From IMG/VR virus record IMGVR_UViG_3300007539_009079: a stretch of DNA of 64,000 nucleotides. One strand, written 5' to 3'. Both the position numbers and the translations under genes were made by a program. Position 1 is the first letter of the stretch. Every line of letters begins with the position of its first letter. Source of the stretch: an uncultured virus (IMG/VR IMGVR_UViG_3300007539_009079) (lineage: Duplodnaviria > Heunggongvirae > Uroviricota > Caudoviricetes). Below are positions 10,015 through 17,221 of the stretch, piece after piece. The notes under the pieces were generated by a model. The model saw only the letters and a list, made by a program, of their open reading frames with translations, did no database searches and was not told the origin of the DNA.

Positions 10015-10926
10015 ATGACTTCACTATCCGAACTCAAGAAAAACCGCAATTCTTTTTTAAAGCAACTAAACAAAGAAATCGAAAAAATTGACACACCTTC
10101 TGAAGGAAAGAGTTACATTGATGATAGATTCTGGAAACCAGAAGTAGATAAATCTGGTAACGGTTATGCTGTTATTAGATTTTTACCTCCGGTGCAAGGC
10201 GAAGATATTCCTTGGGCCAGAGTTTTTAATCATGGTTTTCAAGGTCCAACAGGATTATGGTATATTGAAAATTCTTTGACCACTCTTGGAAAAAAAGATC
10301 CAGTATCAGAATATAACACACAATTGTGGAATTCTGGCATTGAGGCTAATAAAGAAGTGGCAAGAAAACAAAAGCGCCGTTTGACATATATCAGTAACAT
10401 TTATGTTATTTCTGATCCTAAAAATCCACAAAATGAAGGTAAAGTATTTCTTTACAAATTCGGAAAAAAGATTTTTGATAAGATCAATGATCTAATGAAC
10501 CCCGAATTTGAAGATGAAACACCTGTAAATCCTTTTGATTTATGGGAAGGCGCTAGTTTTAAATTGAAAATTCGAAAGGTCGAAGGATATCAAAATTATG
10601 ATAAGTCTGAATTTGATTCTCCGGGACAATTACTGGAAACTGATGAAGAACTTGAAGCCGTTTGGAATTCTCAATATCCTTTGTCAGAGTTTATTGCTGA
10701 TGATAATTTTAAAACCTATGACGAACTAAAGGAGAGATTGGATTTAGTCCTTGCTTTGGATAAACCAAGAATTGAAGAGCCGGTTGTGCAAGCAGTGAAT
10801 AAACGTCCTACTGCAGAAGAAGAGATGCAGCAGGAACGTAAACCTATGCCTGCATATGCAAATATTGGAACGGATGACGATGATGAGGACATGTCATATT
10901 TTGCAAAGTTGGCAGAAGATGATTAA
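10015..10926 (+). CDS. gp32: Single-stranded DNA-binding protein gp32
   Basis: DDRFWKPEVDKSGNGYAVIRFLP, WYIENSLTTLG, NYDKSEF, acidic tail SYFAKLAEDD. Confidence 0.97.
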   Translation: MTSLSELKKNRNSFLKQLNKEIEKIDTPSEGKSYIDDRFWKPEVDKSGNGYAVIRFLPPVQGEDIPWARVFNHGFQGPTGLWYIENSLTTLGKKDPVSEYNTQLWNSGIEANKEVARKQKRRLTYISNIYVISDPKNPQNEGKVFLYKFGKKIFDKINDLMNPEFEDETPVNPFDLWEGASFKLKIRKVEGYQNYDKSEFDSPGQLLETDEELEAVWNSQYPLSEFIADDNFKTYDELKERLDLVLALDKPRIEEPVVQAVNKRPTAEEEMQQERKPMPAYANIGTDDDDEDMSYFAKLAEDD

Positions 10927-13679
10927 TATGAGAGAATATCTTTAAAAGATACGGATGAATTCGGTTCAGGAGGTATCTCAGTGATGTTATACTCTTGAAC
11001 CGAAATTCTTTTATTGTCAATATAATTTGAATTATTTCCAGGGGCAATTATAGGTGCCCCAATAGTTAAATTACTTTTCATTTTTTCGTTTTCATTTTGC
11101 ATGGAAAAAATATGTCCTAAATTTTCCATTTGTTGTCTATTAAATAAAAATTCTGGATTATTTTTTGGTGATTCTCCCGCTATAAATAACTGAGGTTTTG
11201 TAAATACTGCACCCGTTTTAAATTCTGGAACTTTTAAAATTTGATTATTTATTACATCAGGAATTGAATTTTTTTCGGCAGTTCCTGGCAAAAATTTTGA
11301 TAATTGCATTCTATTTTTAGCTAAGTTAATATAATTTTGAACAATTGAGTTTTCATATCTCAATCCTACCATATTCCTAATTGGACTACCTTTTTTCAAC
11401 TGTCTATTTTCTGATACTTCTTTACCAAATTGATTTTTTTTGAATGTATAATCTATATCTTTTGATAAAACAAGAGTTTTCTTTTCATCATCATATTCGA
11501 ATATTTCTCCAAAATTTTTAATATTTAAATTATTGATTTGATTAAATTTTTGAATATTTTCTTTCAATTGTTGTGTATGCAAATTATACACAGCATTTAA
11601 TCGCTCTGCGGCTTGTTCATTCAATGATTTTGTGTCTTCACTGGTATAACTTGTAGATTGATCATTTGATGTTTGTGTGCGCTGATTGTTATTTTGGTTA
11701 TTATTTTCAGTGTTGTTTTCAGTTTTACTTGAAAATTGATTGTTGCTTTGATTATTGTCAAGCAGTGTAGTTTGATTTTTTTCAACCACTTGCTCTTTAA
11801 CGTTATTTGAATTATCAATTTGATCTGAATTGCTGAAGTTATTTTTTATATTTTTAACATCTCTTTGTATAATTTTTTTCTGGACTTCAATCATTTGTCT
11901 ATCTTCTTCATCAAAATCATCTAGTCCAATTACACTATCATCTTGCGCTGAAATTCTTCTGAGAGCAGTAAATAATTTTGTATCAAATTGATCATTTATT
12001 TTACTCAAAGGCACGCCAGCAGGTTGTATGTTGCCCATTGAATCTTTCATTGCGACTTTAGTGATTGCCGTTGAATTCTCAGGATCTACATCAAGAACAT
12101 CACTTAATTTTGAATATTTTTCATTTCCTGATTTTGATAATATTTGATTCGCTAAAGTATCATAATACGATTCATCCGCAGTTCTTGAACCAATTAATCT
12201 AGCATTTTCATCTTCAGTTTCTAATAAACTGATAGTTGATGAAATATTTTCTGGTGTAATACCTTCAGATTCAAACTGTCTTGTTGCAAAATTTAATTCA
12301 TTATCATATTGTTCCAGAAGTTTCAAATCTTCTGGACTCATTTTTGACACATCTCCATCATATTTTTTCAACAATTTGGATTTTTCTAATGCTGCTTTTG
12401 AAAACTTTTTAGTCGCTTCTTCTGATGCGCTTATTTGATCAGAAGATAAAACAGAACCTAATGCAAGTCCAATTGCTGCCCCTAACATAGCTCCTGCAAT
12501 CATGCCTACAGGTGTTCCTACAGAACCTATGAGCATACCAATTTTCATTCCCGCTAACGCTCCTCCCAAACCTCCTAATGCGGCCATAGTTATTGACGCT
12601 ACATTAAATTTAGTATCTTTAGCATTAATGACTCCTAACAGTGAGCCAAATGCTGCTCCTAGAATTATTCCTGGAATTCCAAATTTGCTGCCCACTAATG
12701 CCCCTAATCCTGCCATTAAAAAAGTTTCTTTTAACATATCAGGAGTGCCTGTTAATATTTTACTAGTGGCGTCTTTTCCAAATATAGCGTGCAATGTTGT
12801 CATAGCACTGCCTATCATTAATCCAGGAACTATTCCACGTATGCCTCCCATTGTCATAAAACCGAGTAAAGCACCTTTACCTAAATTATTCAACATATCA
12901 TCATTAAAGAATTCATCAATAAACGTGCCAACTCCTGCAGTAACATTTTCCTCTTCAAATGCTTTTTGCAGTGATTCTAATAATTTCGGACCTAACAATA
13001 AACCAGCAATACCTTTTGTTAATGCTAATCCAGCAGTTCCCAATGATTTAGGTATTAAACTTGTTAATAAACTCATACCTTTTGGACCTAGAAAAATACT
13101 GGATAATAATTTTGCTAAAACCGATCCTAAACCAGAACTTGGCCCACTCGGAATTGACATTCCAGGTGAAGATGTTTTTTGTCTCTGTCTTTCTCTTTTT
13201 CTCTCTAAATCTTCTTCCTCTTCTCTAAATCTTCTTTTTTCAAAAATTGATAATAAGTTGGATAGGTAACTATTATTTTGTTTTTGAAATGCTTGATTTT
13301 GATCATCTTCTTTTTTATTTGATAATTTTAATTGTTCAATAGATTGATTTATATCACTTAATTCTCTAACCATAGGAGTAAATGATTCTGAATTTGATAG
13401 TTCTTGACCATTAGTTTGTCTTAATGTTATTAAAGAATCATTTATATCTTTAAAAAGAATGCTATTACTTTTTTGTAAATCCAATATTTCTTTTGTCCAA
13501 TATGACATTTGAGTTATTGGTTTTAATATAGATTTTAGTAAATTAATTTGTTCTTTACCGGAAGGCTCTTCGGCAGATTCTTTCGAAAAATTATTTTTAT
13601 TTGAAGGATTAAATTTCTTTTTAGTATAATCAATTAATTCACTGAATTTTAAATTTTTTGATTTTTTGGATTTTCTCAT
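10923..13679 (-). CDS. Probable tail tape measure protein
   Basis: 918 aa; coiled-coil N-terminus, GxxxG Gly/Ala hydrophobic repeats, C-terminal GAVFTKPQLFIAGE..PE motif typical of tape measures; follows the gp26-like/gp51-like pair. Confidence 0.7.
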   Translation of the reverse strand: MRKSKKSKNLKFSELIDYTKKKFNPSNKNNFSKESAEEPSGKEQINLLKSILKPITQMSYWTKEILDLQKSNSILFKDINDSLITLRQTNGQELSNSESFTPMVRELSDINQSIEQLKLSNKKEDDQNQAFQKQNNSYLSNLLSIFEKRRFREEEEDLERKRERQRQKTSSPGMSIPSGPSSGLGSVLAKLLSSIFLGPKGMSLLTSLIPKSLGTAGLALTKGIAGLLLGPKLLESLQKAFEEENVTAGVGTFIDEFFNDDMLNNLGKGALLGFMTMGGIRGIVPGLMIGSAMTTLHAIFGKDATSKILTGTPDMLKETFLMAGLGALVGSKFGIPGIILGAAFGSLLGVINAKDTKFNVASITMAALGGLGGALAGMKIGMLIGSVGTPVGMIAGAMLGAAIGLALGSVLSSDQISASEEATKKFSKAALEKSKLLKKYDGDVSKMSPEDLKLLEQYDNELNFATRQFESEGITPENISSTISLLETEDENARLIGSRTADESYYDTLANQILSKSGNEKYSKLSDVLDVDPENSTAITKVAMKDSMGNIQPAGVPLSKINDQFDTKLFTALRRISAQDDSVIGLDDFDEEDRQMIEVQKKIIQRDVKNIKNNFSNSDQIDNSNNVKEQVVEKNQTTLLDNNQSNNQFSSKTENNTENNNQNNNQRTQTSNDQSTSYTSEDTKSLNEQAAERLNAVYNLHTQQLKENIQKFNQINNLNIKNFGEIFEYDDEKKTLVLSKDIDYTFKKNQFGKEVSENRQLKKGSPIRNMVGLRYENSIVQNYINLAKNRMQLSKFLPGTAEKNSIPDVINNQILKVPEFKTGAVFTKPQLFIAGESPKNNPEFLFNRQQMENLGHIFSMQNENEKMKSNLTIGAPIIAPGNNSNYIDNKRISVQEYNITEIPPEPNSSVSFKDILSY

Positions 13680-13870
13680 TTCCTTCTCGCTGCTGCTTGT
13701 TGTTTTAATCTTTCATTTTCTTCTTTGATATAATTTACCAATAATGTGACATATATATCTCTTTCAAAAGGAATCATATTATCCAAATCATTTAAATTAT
13801 ATTTGTGATGCTGCATTAAATTGAAATTTGTTACATAATAATTTTCAAGTGAGTTATGACACAGGCTCAC
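13676..13870 (-). CDS. Small tail/baseplate assembly protein (often annotated gp51-like); probably the frameshift extension of the upstream gene
   Basis: LENYYVTNFNLMQHHKYNL..MIPFERDIYVTLL motif; GTG start with no clear SD, in the -1 frame of the upstream ORF. Confidence 0.75.
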   Translation of the reverse strand: MSLCHNSLENYYVTNFNLMQHHKYNLNDLDNMIPFERDIYVTLLVNYIKEENERLKQQAAARRK

Positions 13871-14620
13871 GAAAAAAAATCTTCAAGAGTACTCAATACA
13901 ACTTCTTCTTCTACACCGCATTTTTTACATCTATATTTTTTAGACACAAAAATAGTTGGCATAGTAGAAAAGAATGATCTTATTTGATCAAATTGCTGAG
14001 AATTTAAATTATTTAAAAATTCAGTAATTTCTTCTTTTTTGTATTCATTGGCATGATAAATTTCATCATTATGATATATGTAATCTATTGATCCAATGAC
14101 AACTTCAAATAAATCATCAATCATACCATTCATTTCAGTAGAATTTGTCACTTGTCCCAACAATTCAACTGTTGGATATTTCATCATAATTCCCATTTCT
14201 TTTGATAATTTAATGTTGGGTTCATTTTCTTTATTTTTTACAGGTTTTATTTCATCTATATTAATTTTTACTTTTTGTGTGCCGTCACAAGATTCGCCAT
14301 TTTTGTTTAAGTTGTTTTTATGCTTTAAATTTACTTCAATTGTTTCTCCGATAGATCTGGATCTTATTTGTAAAAAGATATACTGCAAATCAAATAAAGG
14401 TAGATGTTCTACATTTAAATCCGTAAGTAAACAATTTGATAATATCTGTCTGATAGCTCTTAAAATATCTTTTTCATCACCTGATTCTAAGGCCATTAAT
14501 AGTATTTTTTCTTCTTTGACAAGAAAAGGTCTATATTTAATAGTTTTGTCATTAGATACCAACTTCAACTCATAAGTTGGTATGTTTAATTTGGGTAACA
14601 TAATTTTGCCTGTGTCATAA
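13854..14620. repeat. 13-bp perfect inverted repeat bracketing the gp26-like ORF
   Basis: TTATGACACAGGC at 13854-13866 and its exact reverse complement GCCTGTGTCATAA at 14608-14620. Confidence 0.9.
13867..14601 (-). CDS. gp26: gp26-like baseplate hub / tail assembly chaperone
   Basis: LPKLNIPTYEL..IKYRPFLVKEEKILLMA..FDLQYIFLQIRSRSIGE..CKKC..LEDFF. Confidence 0.85.
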   Translation of the reverse strand: MLPKLNIPTYELKLVSNDKTIKYRPFLVKEEKILLMALESGDEKDILRAIRQILSNCLLTDLNVEHLPLFDLQYIFLQIRSRSIGETIEVNLKHKNNLNKNGESCDGTQKVKINIDEIKPVKNKENEPNIKLSKEMGIMMKYPTVELLGQVTNSTEMNGMIDDLFEVVIGSIDYIYHNDEIYHANEYKKEEITEFLNNLNSQQFDQIRSFFSTMPTIFVSKKYRCKKCGVEEEVVLSTLEDFFS

Positions 14621-14640
14621 AATTATATAAAAAATTGTGA

Positions 14641-15237
14641 TTAATTAAAACCTGATAGGTTAAAACTAGTCATAGGAGTTTCGGTGCTAATAGGTTCTTC
14701 AATGTCTGTATTAACATCAGAGTTTCTCAACCAATATCTATATGCAAAAGTAACATTGATTTTTGCATAATCATTAGTTGCTGAAGTATTCAATGATAAA
14801 GCACTTACTATGGTAGGAAAACATTCTTTAAATGTACAAAAATAAATAGGTTGGTTTGTTTCGTCTAACATGCTTAGAGAAATGTCTTGTACGAATGAAT
14901 CATAATAGTTAACATCAAAACTTGTTGGATGTGTTATGTTATCCATCCAATAATCAAAAAACCTTTTTTCTTCTAGACCATTTGAAGTGCATAAAAATGT
15001 CATGTTTGTTTCAACGTATGAGCTGCCATATGGAATTTTTCTGATCGGACCATAAGTTTTTTCTTCAACTGTTAAAATATTTCTACCAGGCAATTCCGCC
15101 ATTTCACACAAATAGGTCAAGTCTTGTTTGTTTCCAAATGAGATATTTCCACTAAATCGCACTTCAAATCTATTGATAGGAGCAACATTTTTTTTAGAAT
15201 TTATTTTTTCTCTGAAATCTGATATGGATAATGGCAT
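14641..15237 (-). CDS. gp54: Tail tube initiator-like protein (gp54/gp19 family)
   Basis: NRFEV..LCEMAELPGR..W...I..ECFP..VTFAYRYW, tail-tube family pattern. Confidence 0.7.
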   Translation of the reverse strand: MPLSISDFREKINSKKNVAPINRFEVRFSGNISFGNKQDLTYLCEMAELPGRNILTVEEKTYGPIRKIPYGSSYVETNMTFLCTSNGLEEKRFFDYWMDNITHPTSFDVNYYDSFVQDISLSMLDETNQPIYFCTFKECFPTIVSALSLNTSATNDYAKINVTFAYRYWLRNSDVNTDIEEPISTETPMTSFNLSGFN

Positions 15238-15817: not shown

Positions 15818-15825
15818 TATTTAGT
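15818..15825 (-). promoter_or_regulatory. T4-type late promoter (ACTAAATA) for gene 2
   Basis: Last A of the motif at 15818, 6 nt before ATG 15812. Confidence 0.55.
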
Positions 15826-16255
15826 TAAATAAATGATCTTCTGTAATAATTTCAAATTTCCATCTCCTATCTGCACAAAATTCTTGCGCTGCATTCCATT
15901 TTGCTTCGTTTATACCATACACATAAACTTCTTTTAAATATTTTTTTGTGATGGATGCTGGTTTTTTTGGGGGCGAAGTTTGTATTTTAGGTTTTATTTC
16001 AATTAAAATACATTCAACAATATTTTTGTCTTTTTTTATCTTTATCCAAAAATCAGGATAATATCTGTGTATTTTTTTATCAAAAGGAGATTTGTATGGT
16101 ATGGCAATCTCTTCACTAGACCATTCAATTATGCTTGGATTTTGTTCACAGTAATTCATGAATTTTCTTTCCCATAGAGATCTATAGGTTACATTTGTCG
16201 GATCACCTTTATATTTTTCTAAATTTTTTATTCTATATTTTCCTTTATAAGCCAT
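15821..16255 (-). CDS. gp4: Head completion nuclease gp4
   Basis: MAYKGKY..KYKGDP..YRSLWERKFM..WSSEE..HRYYPDF..IEIKP..NEAKW; start corrected to ATG 16255. Confidence 0.92.
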   Translation of the reverse strand: MAYKGKYRIKNLEKYKGDPTNVTYRSLWERKFMNYCEQNPSIIEWSSEEIAIPYKSPFDKKIHRYYPDFWIKIKKDKNIVECILIEIKPKIQTSPPKKPASITKKYLKEVYVYGINEAKWNAAQEFCADRRWKFEIITEDHLFN

Positions 16256-16278
16256 AATAAATATATAGTAGATAAATA
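16256..16278 (+). promoter_or_regulatory. Late promoter motifs upstream of the baseplate operon
   Basis: AATAAATA 16256-16263 and GATAAATA 16271-16278, then AAGGA RBS. Confidence 0.6.
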
Positions 16279-16294
16279 TTAAAAAGGAATAATA

Positions 16295-17221
16295 ATGTCT
16301 AGTCATTTTTTAGATAATATAAAAAAAACAATTATAAATGATGTTCCTCTTACCGACACAGGAACAGCATCTTATAATGCTAGATTTCCATATAATGTTG
16401 GTGAAACAAATGAATATGCAAAATTTTGTATTTTTGTAATTAGTGGTAGATCAATTGGAAATAGGCGCATTTTAAAAGGATATGTACAATTACCATTACC
16501 TCAGGAGATTAATGAAGGTCTAAATGTAGGATATAATACAAGTAGTTTTGGTGTTGTTGGAGCGGCAGCTGTTGGATCATTAAGGGATAATATATCCGGT
16601 CAAAGTATAGGTGAATTAAAAGATAATGCGGAAAGAATACTGAAAAAAGGTGTAGGATCATTTAATATAGAAACTTTTTTTAAAGTTGCAACAAATTTAG
16701 CTTTAAAAGGTACACCTGGATTAAAAGCAGCTGTTAATAATTCTTCAACTACTATTGAAAATCCATATATGACAAGCACTTTTTCTGGTGTTGGATTTAG
16801 ACAATTTAATTTTAATTTCAATTTAATTCCAAAAAATCAAGAAGATTCTATACAATTATCTAATTTGATTAATATTTTTAAAACTTCAATGATGCCTAGA
16901 GATAAGGTTGAAATAAATGACAATTTATTACCAATTAATACTGGATTACAGTATTTACCAGATATATTTGATGTATTTTTTTATCCTACCACGTTAAGTT
17001 TTTCTCAAACAAGATCCGGTAATAATATGCTGAGAATTAGAGATGCCGTATTAACAAAATTTGATGTTAATTTTTCTCCTGACACTCCTTGGCCCGTTTT
17101 TCATGAATCTGATTATGCACCTTTCTCTGCTACAATAAATTTAAGTCTGAAAGAAACAGTTATTTATACCAAAGAAAGATGTGAGGATGACTATGATGAT
17201 CTTTTACGAGGAACACAGTAA
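16295..17221 (+). CDS. gp48: Baseplate tail-tube cap gp48-like, copy 1
   Basis: VQLPLP..ENPY..FRQFNFNFNLIPKNQEDS..LSLKE. Confidence 0.8.
   Translation: MSSHFLDNIKKTIINDVPLTDTGTASYNARFPYNVGETNEYAKFCIFVISGRSIGNRRILKGYVQLPLPQEINEGLNVGYNTSSFGVVGAAAVGSLRDNISGQSIGELKDNAERILKKGVGSFNIETFFKVATNLALKGTPGLKAAVNNSSTTIENPYMTSTFSGVGFRQFNFNFNLIPKNQEDSIQLSNLINIFKTSMMPRDKVEINDNLLPINTGLQYLPDIFDVFFYPTTLSFSQTRSGNNMLRIRDAVLTKFDVNFSPDTPWPVFHESDYAPFSATINLSLKETVIYTKERCEDDYDDLLRGTQ

Follow-up and report, generated by a model that had tools for sequence, protein, structure and literature searches.

The 5′ leader of a tail assembly chaperone gene and a sequence 5–6 nt past the frameshift slip site at the end of the same gene are complementary in all 24 members of a clade of related phage loci, and comparison of these loci supports the reading that the two form a conserved, selected RNA helix. 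We put at roughly 60% the probability that the helix is a frameshift stimulator whose partner strand has shifted into the 5′ leader and would compete there with ribosomes at the start site. The −1 frameshift on a poly-T run into a gp51-like extension is known already. Throughout, the window refers to the whole 64,000-nt stretch of DNA that was analyzed, whose source is an uncultured T4-like myovirus.

On the minus strand of the window, the genes at this locus run in the order tube-like protein (198 aa), gp26-like protein, −1 frame extension, and 918-aa protein. The 198-aa tail-tube-fold protein (14641..15237, minus strand) matches phrog_45 “tail tube” among the PHROG profiles (E 2.3e-33), with Pfam gp19/TTP matches that fall under the curated cut-offs. 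The gp26-type gene (13867..14601, minus strand; 244 aa) was identified as a tail assembly chaperone (TAC-N) by its matches to Pfam PF12322 T4_baseplate (E 1.2e-61) and to phrog_150 (E 2.6e-66); a comparison of the protein with solved structures gave no sequence match. The −1 frame extension of ~65 codons (13676..13872, minus strand) is the gp51-like “T” part, matching phrog_634 “baseplate hub assembly catalyst” (E 6.3e-29), and the predicted gp26/gp51-like fusion protein would be ~308 aa. The AUG of the 918-aa gene (10923..13679, minus strand) overlaps the stop of the extension (AUGA). This last gene has weak matches only (phrog_167 “tail length tape measure,” E 2.5e-4; phrog_16692, E 6e-9), which together with its size and position hint that it may be the tape measure gene. 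Taken together, the locus shows gp26 family homology, a gp51-like second part, a tube-fold gene before it, and the putative tape measure after it, as expected of a TAC pair. As in lambda gpG/gpGT and T4-like TAC-N genes, one gene would yield a short and a long chaperone through a −1 shift close to its 3′ end, and as in the lambda gpG/gpGT type, the gene for the chaperone directly precedes the putative tape measure gene.

The gp26-type gene ends in a programmed −1 frameshift site giving a short and a long protein, both of them predicted products. The slippery heptamer U_UUU_UUU (13873..13879, minus strand) lies inside a T8 run (13872–13879) and fits the X_XXY_YYZ pattern in the 0 frame, and the 0-frame stop follows one codon past it. 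The equivalent site reads N_UUU_UU[U/C/A] in 191 of the 216 distinct family loci. The −1 frame opens only from the UGA directly 5′ of the T run, and the extension is reachable solely through a −1 shift on that run. No start codon in the −1 frame is conserved among the relatives; the GUG found in this frame in the window is replaced there by CGC AUA or UUC AUA.

The minus-strand mRNA reads uuuuAUGACACAGGCaaaauuAUG near the gene start and gaUUUUUUUUcgUGAGCCUGUGUCAUAAcuc near the gene end. The arm in the 5′ leader, arm A (UUAUGACACAGGC, 14608..14620, minus strand), contains the invariant core UGACACAGGC (14617–14608) and ends 6 nt 5′ of the AUG at 14601; the core is 23 nt from the stop codon of the 198-aa ORF. 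Its exact complement, arm B (GCCUGUGUCAUAA, 13854..13866, minus strand), stands directly 3′ of the stop codon of the gp26-type ORF and also codes S-L-C-H in the −1 frame extension. The initial annotation had described a 13-nt complementarity between these places, and the two arms are indeed 100% complementary and 741 nt apart. Its placement of arm B is likewise borne out, as this arm abuts the stop codon and lies 6 nt past U_UUU_UUU (13879–13873), separated from it by the spacer UCGUGA (13867..13872, minus strand), which contains the 0-frame stop UGA (13869–13867). The entire gp26-type ORF is thus the loop that the helix closes. The same annotation had taken the AGG in arm A for the only Shine-Dalgarno (SD)-like element of the leader, and within the last 25 nt of the leader no other SD-like element does occur.

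Within the window, the repeat itself would not attract attention. The arms had been called unusually GC-rich, and with 6/13 G/C they do exceed the 29.8% G+C of the window, but the repeat is only mildly unusual: an inverted 13-mer with at least 6 G/C is present in 8% of shuffled windows. Inverted exact 13-mers up to 1.5 kb apart number 13, against 12.1 ± 4.8 expected from 200 dinucleotide shuffles. The length of the repeat is therefore at chance level, and a chance repeat is ruled out by conservation in relatives alone; the pairing is significant because it is conserved, not because of its length. The arm core has no further copy in the 64-kb window and occurs in the collected loci just as the two arms, which does not fit a dispersed regulatory motif. 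Other candidate roles were set aside as well: promoter-like sites are at chance level in a consensus scan, all 3 terminator-like hairpins lie on the plus strand, and a comparison of positions 13400–15000 with Rfam gave no match with E ≤1.

To compare relatives, we used 216 distinct complete gp26-like loci, including the clade of interest with its 24 distinct loci. Complementarity in related phages had been named as the check for the pairing, and all 24 distinct clade loci keep both arms. The duplex between leader and post-stop sequence has −19.6 to −26.9 kcal/mol in these 24 loci, and the next best of the 216 reaches −13.5. Among the first 172 loci, 11 clade members rank 0 against 130–204 control windows each. 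A search with arm B only returned 38 gp26 homologs, of which 33 have a complete leader, and arm A is present in 33/33; searching by arm A plus the ORF start found arm B in 34/34. The 24 loci form a single clade with no intruders in a neighbor-joining tree of 185 proteins, which, as a tree without support values, suggests a single origin of the pairing.

The core of 10 bp is invariant in 24/24 loci, and the helix overall spans 10–16 bp. Since 13 of the 24 distinct loci came from searches demanding one exact arm, the apparent invariance of the searched arm is inflated; in the 11 loci collected through protein similarity alone, the core is likewise invariant in all. The leader positions that flank the core of arm A vary, with an entropy of 1–1.9 bits. 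Outer position 2 is AU in 6 loci, GC in 14, GU in 2, and unpaired in 2 (at least 7 changes on the tree), and outer position 3 is UA in 6, UG in 11, CG in 5, and unpaired in 2 (at least 8 changes). The G·U pairs in the flanks are possible on the mRNA strand alone. In arm B, the codons AGC CUG UGU use no synonyms, whereas other conserved extension codons do vary synonymously. With regard to the covariation proposed as a check, the flanks vary yet stay paired, and the 10-bp core, being invariant, offers none. A formal covariation score on an alignment of 11 sequences is weak (shuffles reached the observed value in 48/500) because 10 of 16 pairs never vary. The spacer between heptamer and helix is 5 nt in 15/24 loci and 6 nt in 9/24, while the distance from helix to AUG drifts from 6 to 17 nt across the 24 loci. 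The stop codon of the upstream gene lies at most 17 nt from the arm A core in 18/24. In L008, a locus with an AAGGAG of its own, this distance is 10 nt.

A search for further conserved helices beyond the arms found none, own-locus duplexes having a mean of −9.5 vs −8.75 for cross-locus duplexes. When the arm was defined as 20 nt including the spacer, the loci L025, L039, L209, and L229 also pass −14. L025 and L039 alone among these four look related to the clade. In the L025 lineage, the real SD (UGAUUGAGGA) pairs with the post-stop sequence; this lineage is the exception, and a family-wide pairing of SD and post-stop sequence was rejected (mean z −0.27, 6.4% at p ≤0.05, 140 loci). A search for more relatives of L011 and L025 returned no additional contigs.

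What distinguishes the clade besides the helix is the region just past the slip site. In the clade, folding of the 60 nt 3′ of the slip site does not exceed expectation (n = 11, mean z +0.61; z +1.14 in the window), vs a mean z of −1.17 in the other 140 loci, 37 of which have z < −2. A local duplex of −10 or stronger is found in 0/24 clade loci vs 45/140 other slip-site loci. Automatic mapping of the hairpin start in the relatives gave a broad and uninformative spread, and the comparison uses the z-scores and one aligned subclade, in which 8 sequences share an 11-bp consensus hairpin beginning 5 nt past the heptamer. Arm B occupies the site where relatives have the 5′ arm of the local hairpin, a position that fits a frameshift stimulator. 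In the window, a structure 5–9 nt 3′ of the heptamer arises only via the long-range helix. In the proposed folding check, the full ~870-nt stretch was used, and its minimum-energy structure contains the core helix in 24/24 loci, with a mean pair probability of 0.99 (1.0 for the window), in models that leave ribosomes out of an ORF that is translated between the arms. Ribosome traffic through this ORF could hold the arms apart.

At the start site, the picture is more varied. The helix had been said to occlude the ribosome-binding site, and it does mask the only SD-like element in the window and in L004, L006, and L007 (4/24). This does not extend to the other 20 clade loci, in which an independent AAGGAG/AAGGA stands 3′ of arm A, before the AUG, so that the SD is 1–8 nt outside the helix. 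In all 24 loci, the helix end 6–17 nt from the AUG is within the reach of an initiating ribosome.

Based on these comparisons, we propose the following mechanism. In most relatives, a local hairpin at or just past the stop would be the likely obstacle that promotes slippage. In the clade of the window, GCCUGUGUCA plus its flanks would pair instead with UGACACAGGC in the leader ~740 nt upstream, replacing the hairpin. With the heptamer in the P and A sites, this helix would stand at the mRNA entrance, 5–6 nt ahead, like a hairpin or an annealed antisense oligonucleotide, and some ribosomes would slip at U_UUU_UUU and add the gp51-like extension. Ribosomes initiating on the gp26-like gene, or terminating on the upstream gene, should compete with the helix, because arm A is 6–17 nt before the AUG and, in 18/24 loci, at most 17 nt from the upstream stop. 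The helix in turn should hinder initiation, and in the subclade of the window it would bury the sole SD-like AGG.

We infer both stimulation of frameshifting and a link between recoding and the passage of ribosomes at the gene start. The initial annotation had seen in the helix a stimulator and an occluder at once; conservation of the pairing and a geometry that fits stimulation favor the former part, and the latter applies, as SD masking, in 4/24 loci only. Its further idea, that ribosomes finishing the gene would license new initiation and that the device would set the short:long protein ratio, is a hypothesis. In the fullest form that we consider, the helix would be a two-way coupler: ribosomes terminating on the upstream gene or initiating on the chaperone gene would strip the stimulator, ribosomes at the slip site would strip the start block, and the short:long ratio and ribosome loading would regulate each other. 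This form is possible, and we offer it tentatively, as a less probable proposal than stimulation itself. At the thresholds used, about half of the rest of the family (95/164 with a slip site) is without a strong duplex, whether local or with the leader; the slip site may therefore need no strong stimulator, and the helix may serve otherwise.

One such service, which we consider unlikely, is control of initiation only: the ribosome-binding site would be masked or crowded until ribosomes finishing the upstream gene or gp26 melt the helix. This would amount to long-range translational coupling, with the neighborhood of the slip site having no effect on frameshifting. The position of arm A in all 24 loci agrees with it, as do the 4/24 loci in which arm A holds the sole SD-like element and the 18/24 in which a ribosome terminating at the nearby upstream stop (≤17 nt from the core) would open the helix. 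The SD pairing of the L025 lineage and the many relatives that seemingly do without a strong 3′ structure point the same way. However, initiation control leaves unexplained why the spacing to the heptamer is fixed at 5–6 nt when that to the AUG is free to change, and why the clade is missing the local hairpin; masking would also be simpler by a local anti-SD partner. A closed loop for recycling, in which the helix juxtaposes stop and start so that released ribosomes or subunits re-initiate on the same message, is improbable in our judgment. Its appeal is geometric only, with the stop abutting the helix and the AUG 6–17 nt from the same helix end. The mRNA channel reaches far enough that about half of the helix should be open by the time a ribosome stands at the stop codon, so the juxtaposition would be lost at termination, and we know of no bacterial precedent for closed-loop recycling.

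Comparably improbable is a role of the duplex in processing or stability of the chaperone message, as a site for a double-strand-specific nuclease or as a protective clamp. A weak hint comes from RNA contigs identical to the window that end at 14613 and 14616, within arm A, in two metatranscriptome runs from two studies. These contigs are 151 and 179 nt long, and amount to about one or two reads (depth 2.7–7.8). RNA contigs cover neither the slip site nor arm B, and they list no variants in the length of the T run. A helix of 10–16 bp is also short for typical RNase III substrates, and processing too leaves the 5–6 nt heptamer spacing unexplained. Still further down, we regard it as very improbable that the arms are protein recognition sites on DNA or RNA, or the ends of an invertible segment, with complementarity a by-product. 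The strictly invariant 10-nt core of both arms is what a protein-binding site might look like; against this, neither the 64-kb window nor the collected loci contain the motif outside these arms, and the flanks vary yet pair, including through G·U pairs of the mRNA strand only. Inversion would moreover break the frameshift junction. The initial annotation had ranked inversion as the less likely alternative, in agreement with these mRNA-only pairs and with the DNA contigs of 2 runs, which, although such contigs may miss rare inverted forms, contain no joints or inverted form.

The reading of the helix as a stimulator can be placed among known systems. Vladimirov, Gautam and Davidson reportedly published gp26 as a tail assembly chaperone, together with its frameshift, in Virology in 2022. 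In RNA phage MS2, the Min Jou interaction masks a ribosome-binding site by pairing the start region with a remote part of the RNA, and it opens when ribosomes pass through the partner. That partner is located in the coat gene upstream, and no recoding site is involved, whereas the ORF described here has its partner at its own 3′ end, next to a slip site. The poly-T slip site of T4-like TAC-N genes is treated as established in the literature (PMC12846349), and T4-like phages with separate short and long chaperone genes are described (PMC10885494). In the open-access literature searched, there was no mention of a stimulatory structure, local or distant, for T4-like TAC-N genes, and no description of an ORF-spanning frameshift architecture.

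Distant pairing that is needed for, or tunes, −1 frameshifting is described for plant RNA viruses (barley yellow dwarf virus, red clover necrotic mosaic virus, and pea enation mosaic virus RNA2) by Atkins et al. 2016 (PMC5009743). In these viruses, a local bulged stem-loop beside the slip site makes a kissing contact with a loop that is kilobases further downstream and close to the 3′ end. In contrast, the clade of the window is without a local stem; the distant strand itself makes the helix; the partner belongs to the 5′ leader, ~740 nt upstream, and encloses a translated ORF; and the setting is a bacterial-host system with a DNA genome. A plain duplex can have this effect: −1 frameshifting is reported to increase when RNA oligonucleotides anneal just 3′ of a slip site, with an optimum of 12–18 nt, and it is stability at the tunnel entrance that counts, not a particular 3D shape (PMC3001050); PMC1616946 is a further study of antisense-oligonucleotide-induced frameshifting. 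The helix described here resembles these systems in being a plain duplex, of 10–16 bp, with a non-contiguous strand 3′ of the slip site. The oligonucleotide systems are synthetic, act in trans, and were studied in eukaryotic in vitro translation, whereas here both strands belong to the same mRNA and one overlaps the start region.

Frameshift stimulators of bacteria and phages are usually sought and annotated within a few dozen bases past the slip site; here, the comparison of relatives suggests that the partner strand is 740 bases upstream, in the gene's own start region. If the stimulator reading is true, it would mean that a bacterial-type mRNA under translation can use a plain long-range duplex in place of a hairpin stimulator, that the efficiency of recoding can depend on ribosomes passing the gene start, and that searches in local windows overlook such signals. 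If the two-way coupler is also true, frameshifting induced by antisense strands would have a natural cis-acting counterpart, and a recoding signal that spans an ORF would be described in a DNA phage for the first time. The element is compact and has clear limits, consisting of two arms of 10–16 nt for which natural compensatory variants exist.

On the minus strand of the window, a 244-aa gp26-like ORF (PF12322, E 1.2e-61; phrog_150, E 2.6e-66) runs from an AUG at 14601 to a UGA at 13869-13867. Its leader reads UUAUGACACAGGC-AAAAUU-AUG, and its 3' end reads GAU UUU UUU UCG UGA, followed immediately by GCCUGUGUCAUAA. The heptamer U_UUU_UUU (13879-13873) lies one codon before this stop. The -1 frame opens at a UGA just 5' of the T run and is ~65 codons long; this extension matches phrog_634 (E 6.3e-29), a family annotated as "baseplate hub assembly catalyst," i.e., gp51-like. 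The repeat finder places two arms at 14608-14620 (arm A, in the leader) and 13854-13866 (arm B, directly after the stop), which are 13 nt long, 100% complementary, and 741 nt apart. Together with the minus-strand reading, this bears out the layout described in the initial annotation; the predicted duplex would close the whole ORF as a loop on the mRNA.

The -1 frameshift in gp26-type genes is a family trait and has already been published: poly-T slip sites in TAC-N genes of T4-like phages are credited by PMC12846349 to Vladimirov, Gautam and Davidson (Virology 2022), and PMC10885494 credits the same paper with T4-like phages in which the short and long forms have genes of their own. After removal of duplicates, IMG/VR and metagenome contigs gave 216 distinct complete gp26-like loci, and an N_UUU_UU[U/C/A] heptamer stands one codon before the stop in 191. 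The remaining 25 lack a T-run heptamer there (e.g., L062, L065, L435, and L452), and their different ORF end is possibly a fused form or a shift site placed differently. Among the relatives, the -1 frame 3' of the heptamer has no conserved start codon. GenBank cyanophage records, e.g., Synechococcus phage Bellamy (L081), list a small, separate gene for the extension, "baseplate hub assembly," which starts 3' of the gp26 stop, and leave the frameshift product unannotated.

By itself, the repeat hardly exceeds chance, and the case for it depends on relatives: the window holds 13 exact 13-mer inverted repeats whose arms lie within 1.5 kb, versus 12.1 +/- 4.8 in dinucleotide shuffles, and an inverted 13-mer of equal G+C richness occurs in 8% of shuffled windows. 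Duplex energies between the leader (-55 to +5) and the 24 nt post-stop were ranked against 130-204 control windows per locus. All 11 loci with at least 45% protein identity to the window rank first (-20 to -28 kcal/mol), and all remaining loci have scattered ranks. When the arm is set at 14 nt, scores of -19.6 to -26.9 are reached in 24 of the 185 distinct loci (next best -13.5), and scoring 31 more distinct loci yielded no additional helix-bearing locus. These 24 loci, 13 of which came from searches fixing one arm, form one clade with zero intruders in a neighbor-joining tree of the 185 proteins (no support values). An IMG/VR search on the T run and arm B core only returned 59 stretches with 38 gp26 homologs, and arm A was present in 33/33 of those with a complete leader. 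The reciprocal search, keyed to nothing but arm A and the opening codons, returned 72 stretches with 36 homologs, and arm B was present in each of the 34 with a complete 3' end. The arm motif was found nowhere else in the window or the fetched loci.

The helix core, UGACACAGGC/GCCUGUGUCA, is invariant across the clade, with contiguous pairing of 10-16 bp. Outer position 2 is AU in 6 loci, GC in 14, GU in 2, and unpaired in 2 (at least 7 changes on the tree), and outer position 3 is UA in 6, UG in 11, CG in 5, and unpaired in 2 (at least 8 changes); the final A of the stop codon contributes an inner U-A pair in 15 loci. The complementarity between leader and post-slip sequence that the initial annotation proposed to look for in relatives is present in the 24 clade loci, with compensatory variation of the outer pairs. 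A shuffle control for covariation in an 11-sequence alignment did not reach significance, since 10 of the 16 pairs are constant. Arm A is invariant, with the remaining leader positions at 1-1.9 bits of entropy; the arm B codons AGC CUG UGU use zero synonyms, while other conserved extension residues do vary synonymously. Folding the full ~870 nt places the core helix in the minimum-energy structure of all 24 loci (mean pair probability 0.99); no further conserved helices were found flanking it. Altogether, these comparisons strongly support the long-range helix as a predicted structure.

Arm B sits at the spot where many relatives carry a local hairpin. In the clade, folding of the 60 nt 3' of the slip site is no more stable than in shuffles (mean z +0.61 over 11 loci; z +1.14 for the window). 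In the other 140 loci, mean z is -1.17 and 37 loci fall below -2, many of them with stems that begin at the stop codon or just 3' of it; in one 8-sequence subclade, an 11-bp consensus hairpin with one compensatory pair begins 5 nt 3' of the heptamer. A local duplex of -10 or stronger occurs in 0/24 clade loci versus 45/140 other slip-site loci. Neither a local nor a leader duplex appears at the thresholds used in 95 of 164 slip-site loci, so a strong stimulator may not be obligatory for this slip site.

The best-supported reading, with moderate support from these analyses, is that the helix may stimulate the -1 shift from the 3' side of the slip site, the leader providing its descending strand. 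The heptamer-to-helix gap is 5 nt in 15 loci and 6 nt in 9. As a precedent, RNA oligonucleotides annealed 3' of a slip site are reported to promote shifting; lengths of 12-18 nt work best, and what matters most is stability at the tunnel entrance (PMC3001050). Long-distance pairing is also described as controlling frameshifting in plant RNA viruses, through contact between a local bulged stem-loop and a distant downstream loop (PMC5009743). In the window, by contrast, there is no local stem; the helix draws its partner strand from the start region upstream and encloses a translated ORF. Our literature search, which covered an open-access collection, turned up no account of this arrangement for phages or bacteria.

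The helix lies 6-17 nt from the AUG, and the initial annotation held that it masks the only SD-like AGG. This applies to the subclade of the window's own locus and relatives L004, L006, and L007, where the AGG within arm A is the sole SD-like element, and not to the other 20 clade loci, which have a separate AAGGAG or AAGGA between arm A and the AUG. Since arm A lies in the ribosome landing zone, helix formation would be expected to compete with ribosome loading, so initiation and recoding could plausibly be linked; this link, like the feedback on the short:long protein ratio envisaged in the initial annotation, is an inference. The upstream gene's stop codon precedes the arm A core by at most 17 nt in 18/24 loci and at most 13 nt in 16/24. 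Given the reach of a ribosome on mRNA, one terminating on the upstream gene should cover or open arm A.

Less favored readings of the helix are control of initiation only, closed-loop recycling, and a processing site. In two metatranscriptome studies, RNA contigs that match parts of the gene stop within arm A, at 14613 and 14616, where DNA contigs continue past; they are only 151 and 179 nt long, with zero RNA cover of arm B, and their ends could mark a transcript end or cut, or low-depth noise. The arms might also be a protein-binding site or DNA inversion ends. The helix G.U pairs are possible on the mRNA strand only, and the invertible segment, which the initial annotation had considered less likely, is disfavored by the DNA contigs of two runs, which contain no joints. 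T-run length is also constant in these contigs, and one of them covers the whole stretch with a single mismatch.

A related pairing occurs in the L025 lineage (contigs L021, L025, and L039), which is sister to the clade in the tree without support values. Here the true SD region, UGAUUGAGGA, pairs with UCCUUGGUCA at the homologous post-stop position (10/10), and the duplex, spacer included, reaches almost to the heptamer. Relative to the clade, three changes are two-sided and one is one-sided, and the pairing survives all four. For this one lineage among 140 tested, the sequences are suggestive of a common origin with the clade pairing. Separately, in locus L209, a gp26 relative outside the clade at 42% identity, the leader and post-stop sequence are exact complements over 10 bp, AACCAUUCCU/AGGAAUGGUU, with the leader arm ~36-46 nt before the AUG (duplex -17.6 versus a control minimum of -14.8); this may be an independent case or chance.

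The gp26-like ORF lies between an upstream tube-fold gene and a downstream 918-aa tape-measure-like gene. The AUG of the latter overlaps the stop of the -1 extension as AUGA (13676-13679, minus strand), so its translation might be coupled to frameshifted ribosomes. About 20 nt inside the gp26-like ORF, the mRNA contains a 10-bp hairpin, AUACCAACUU...AAGUUGGUAU (14556-14583), which is flagged as terminator-like on the plus strand and also appears in the full-length fold; it has no apparent conservation in the 11-sequence alignment. Also on the minus strand, a 161-aa head-completion-type protein (15821-16306; phrog_218, E 1.1e-58) additionally matches PF08722, the TnsA-like endonuclease N-terminal domain (E 2.3e-22).
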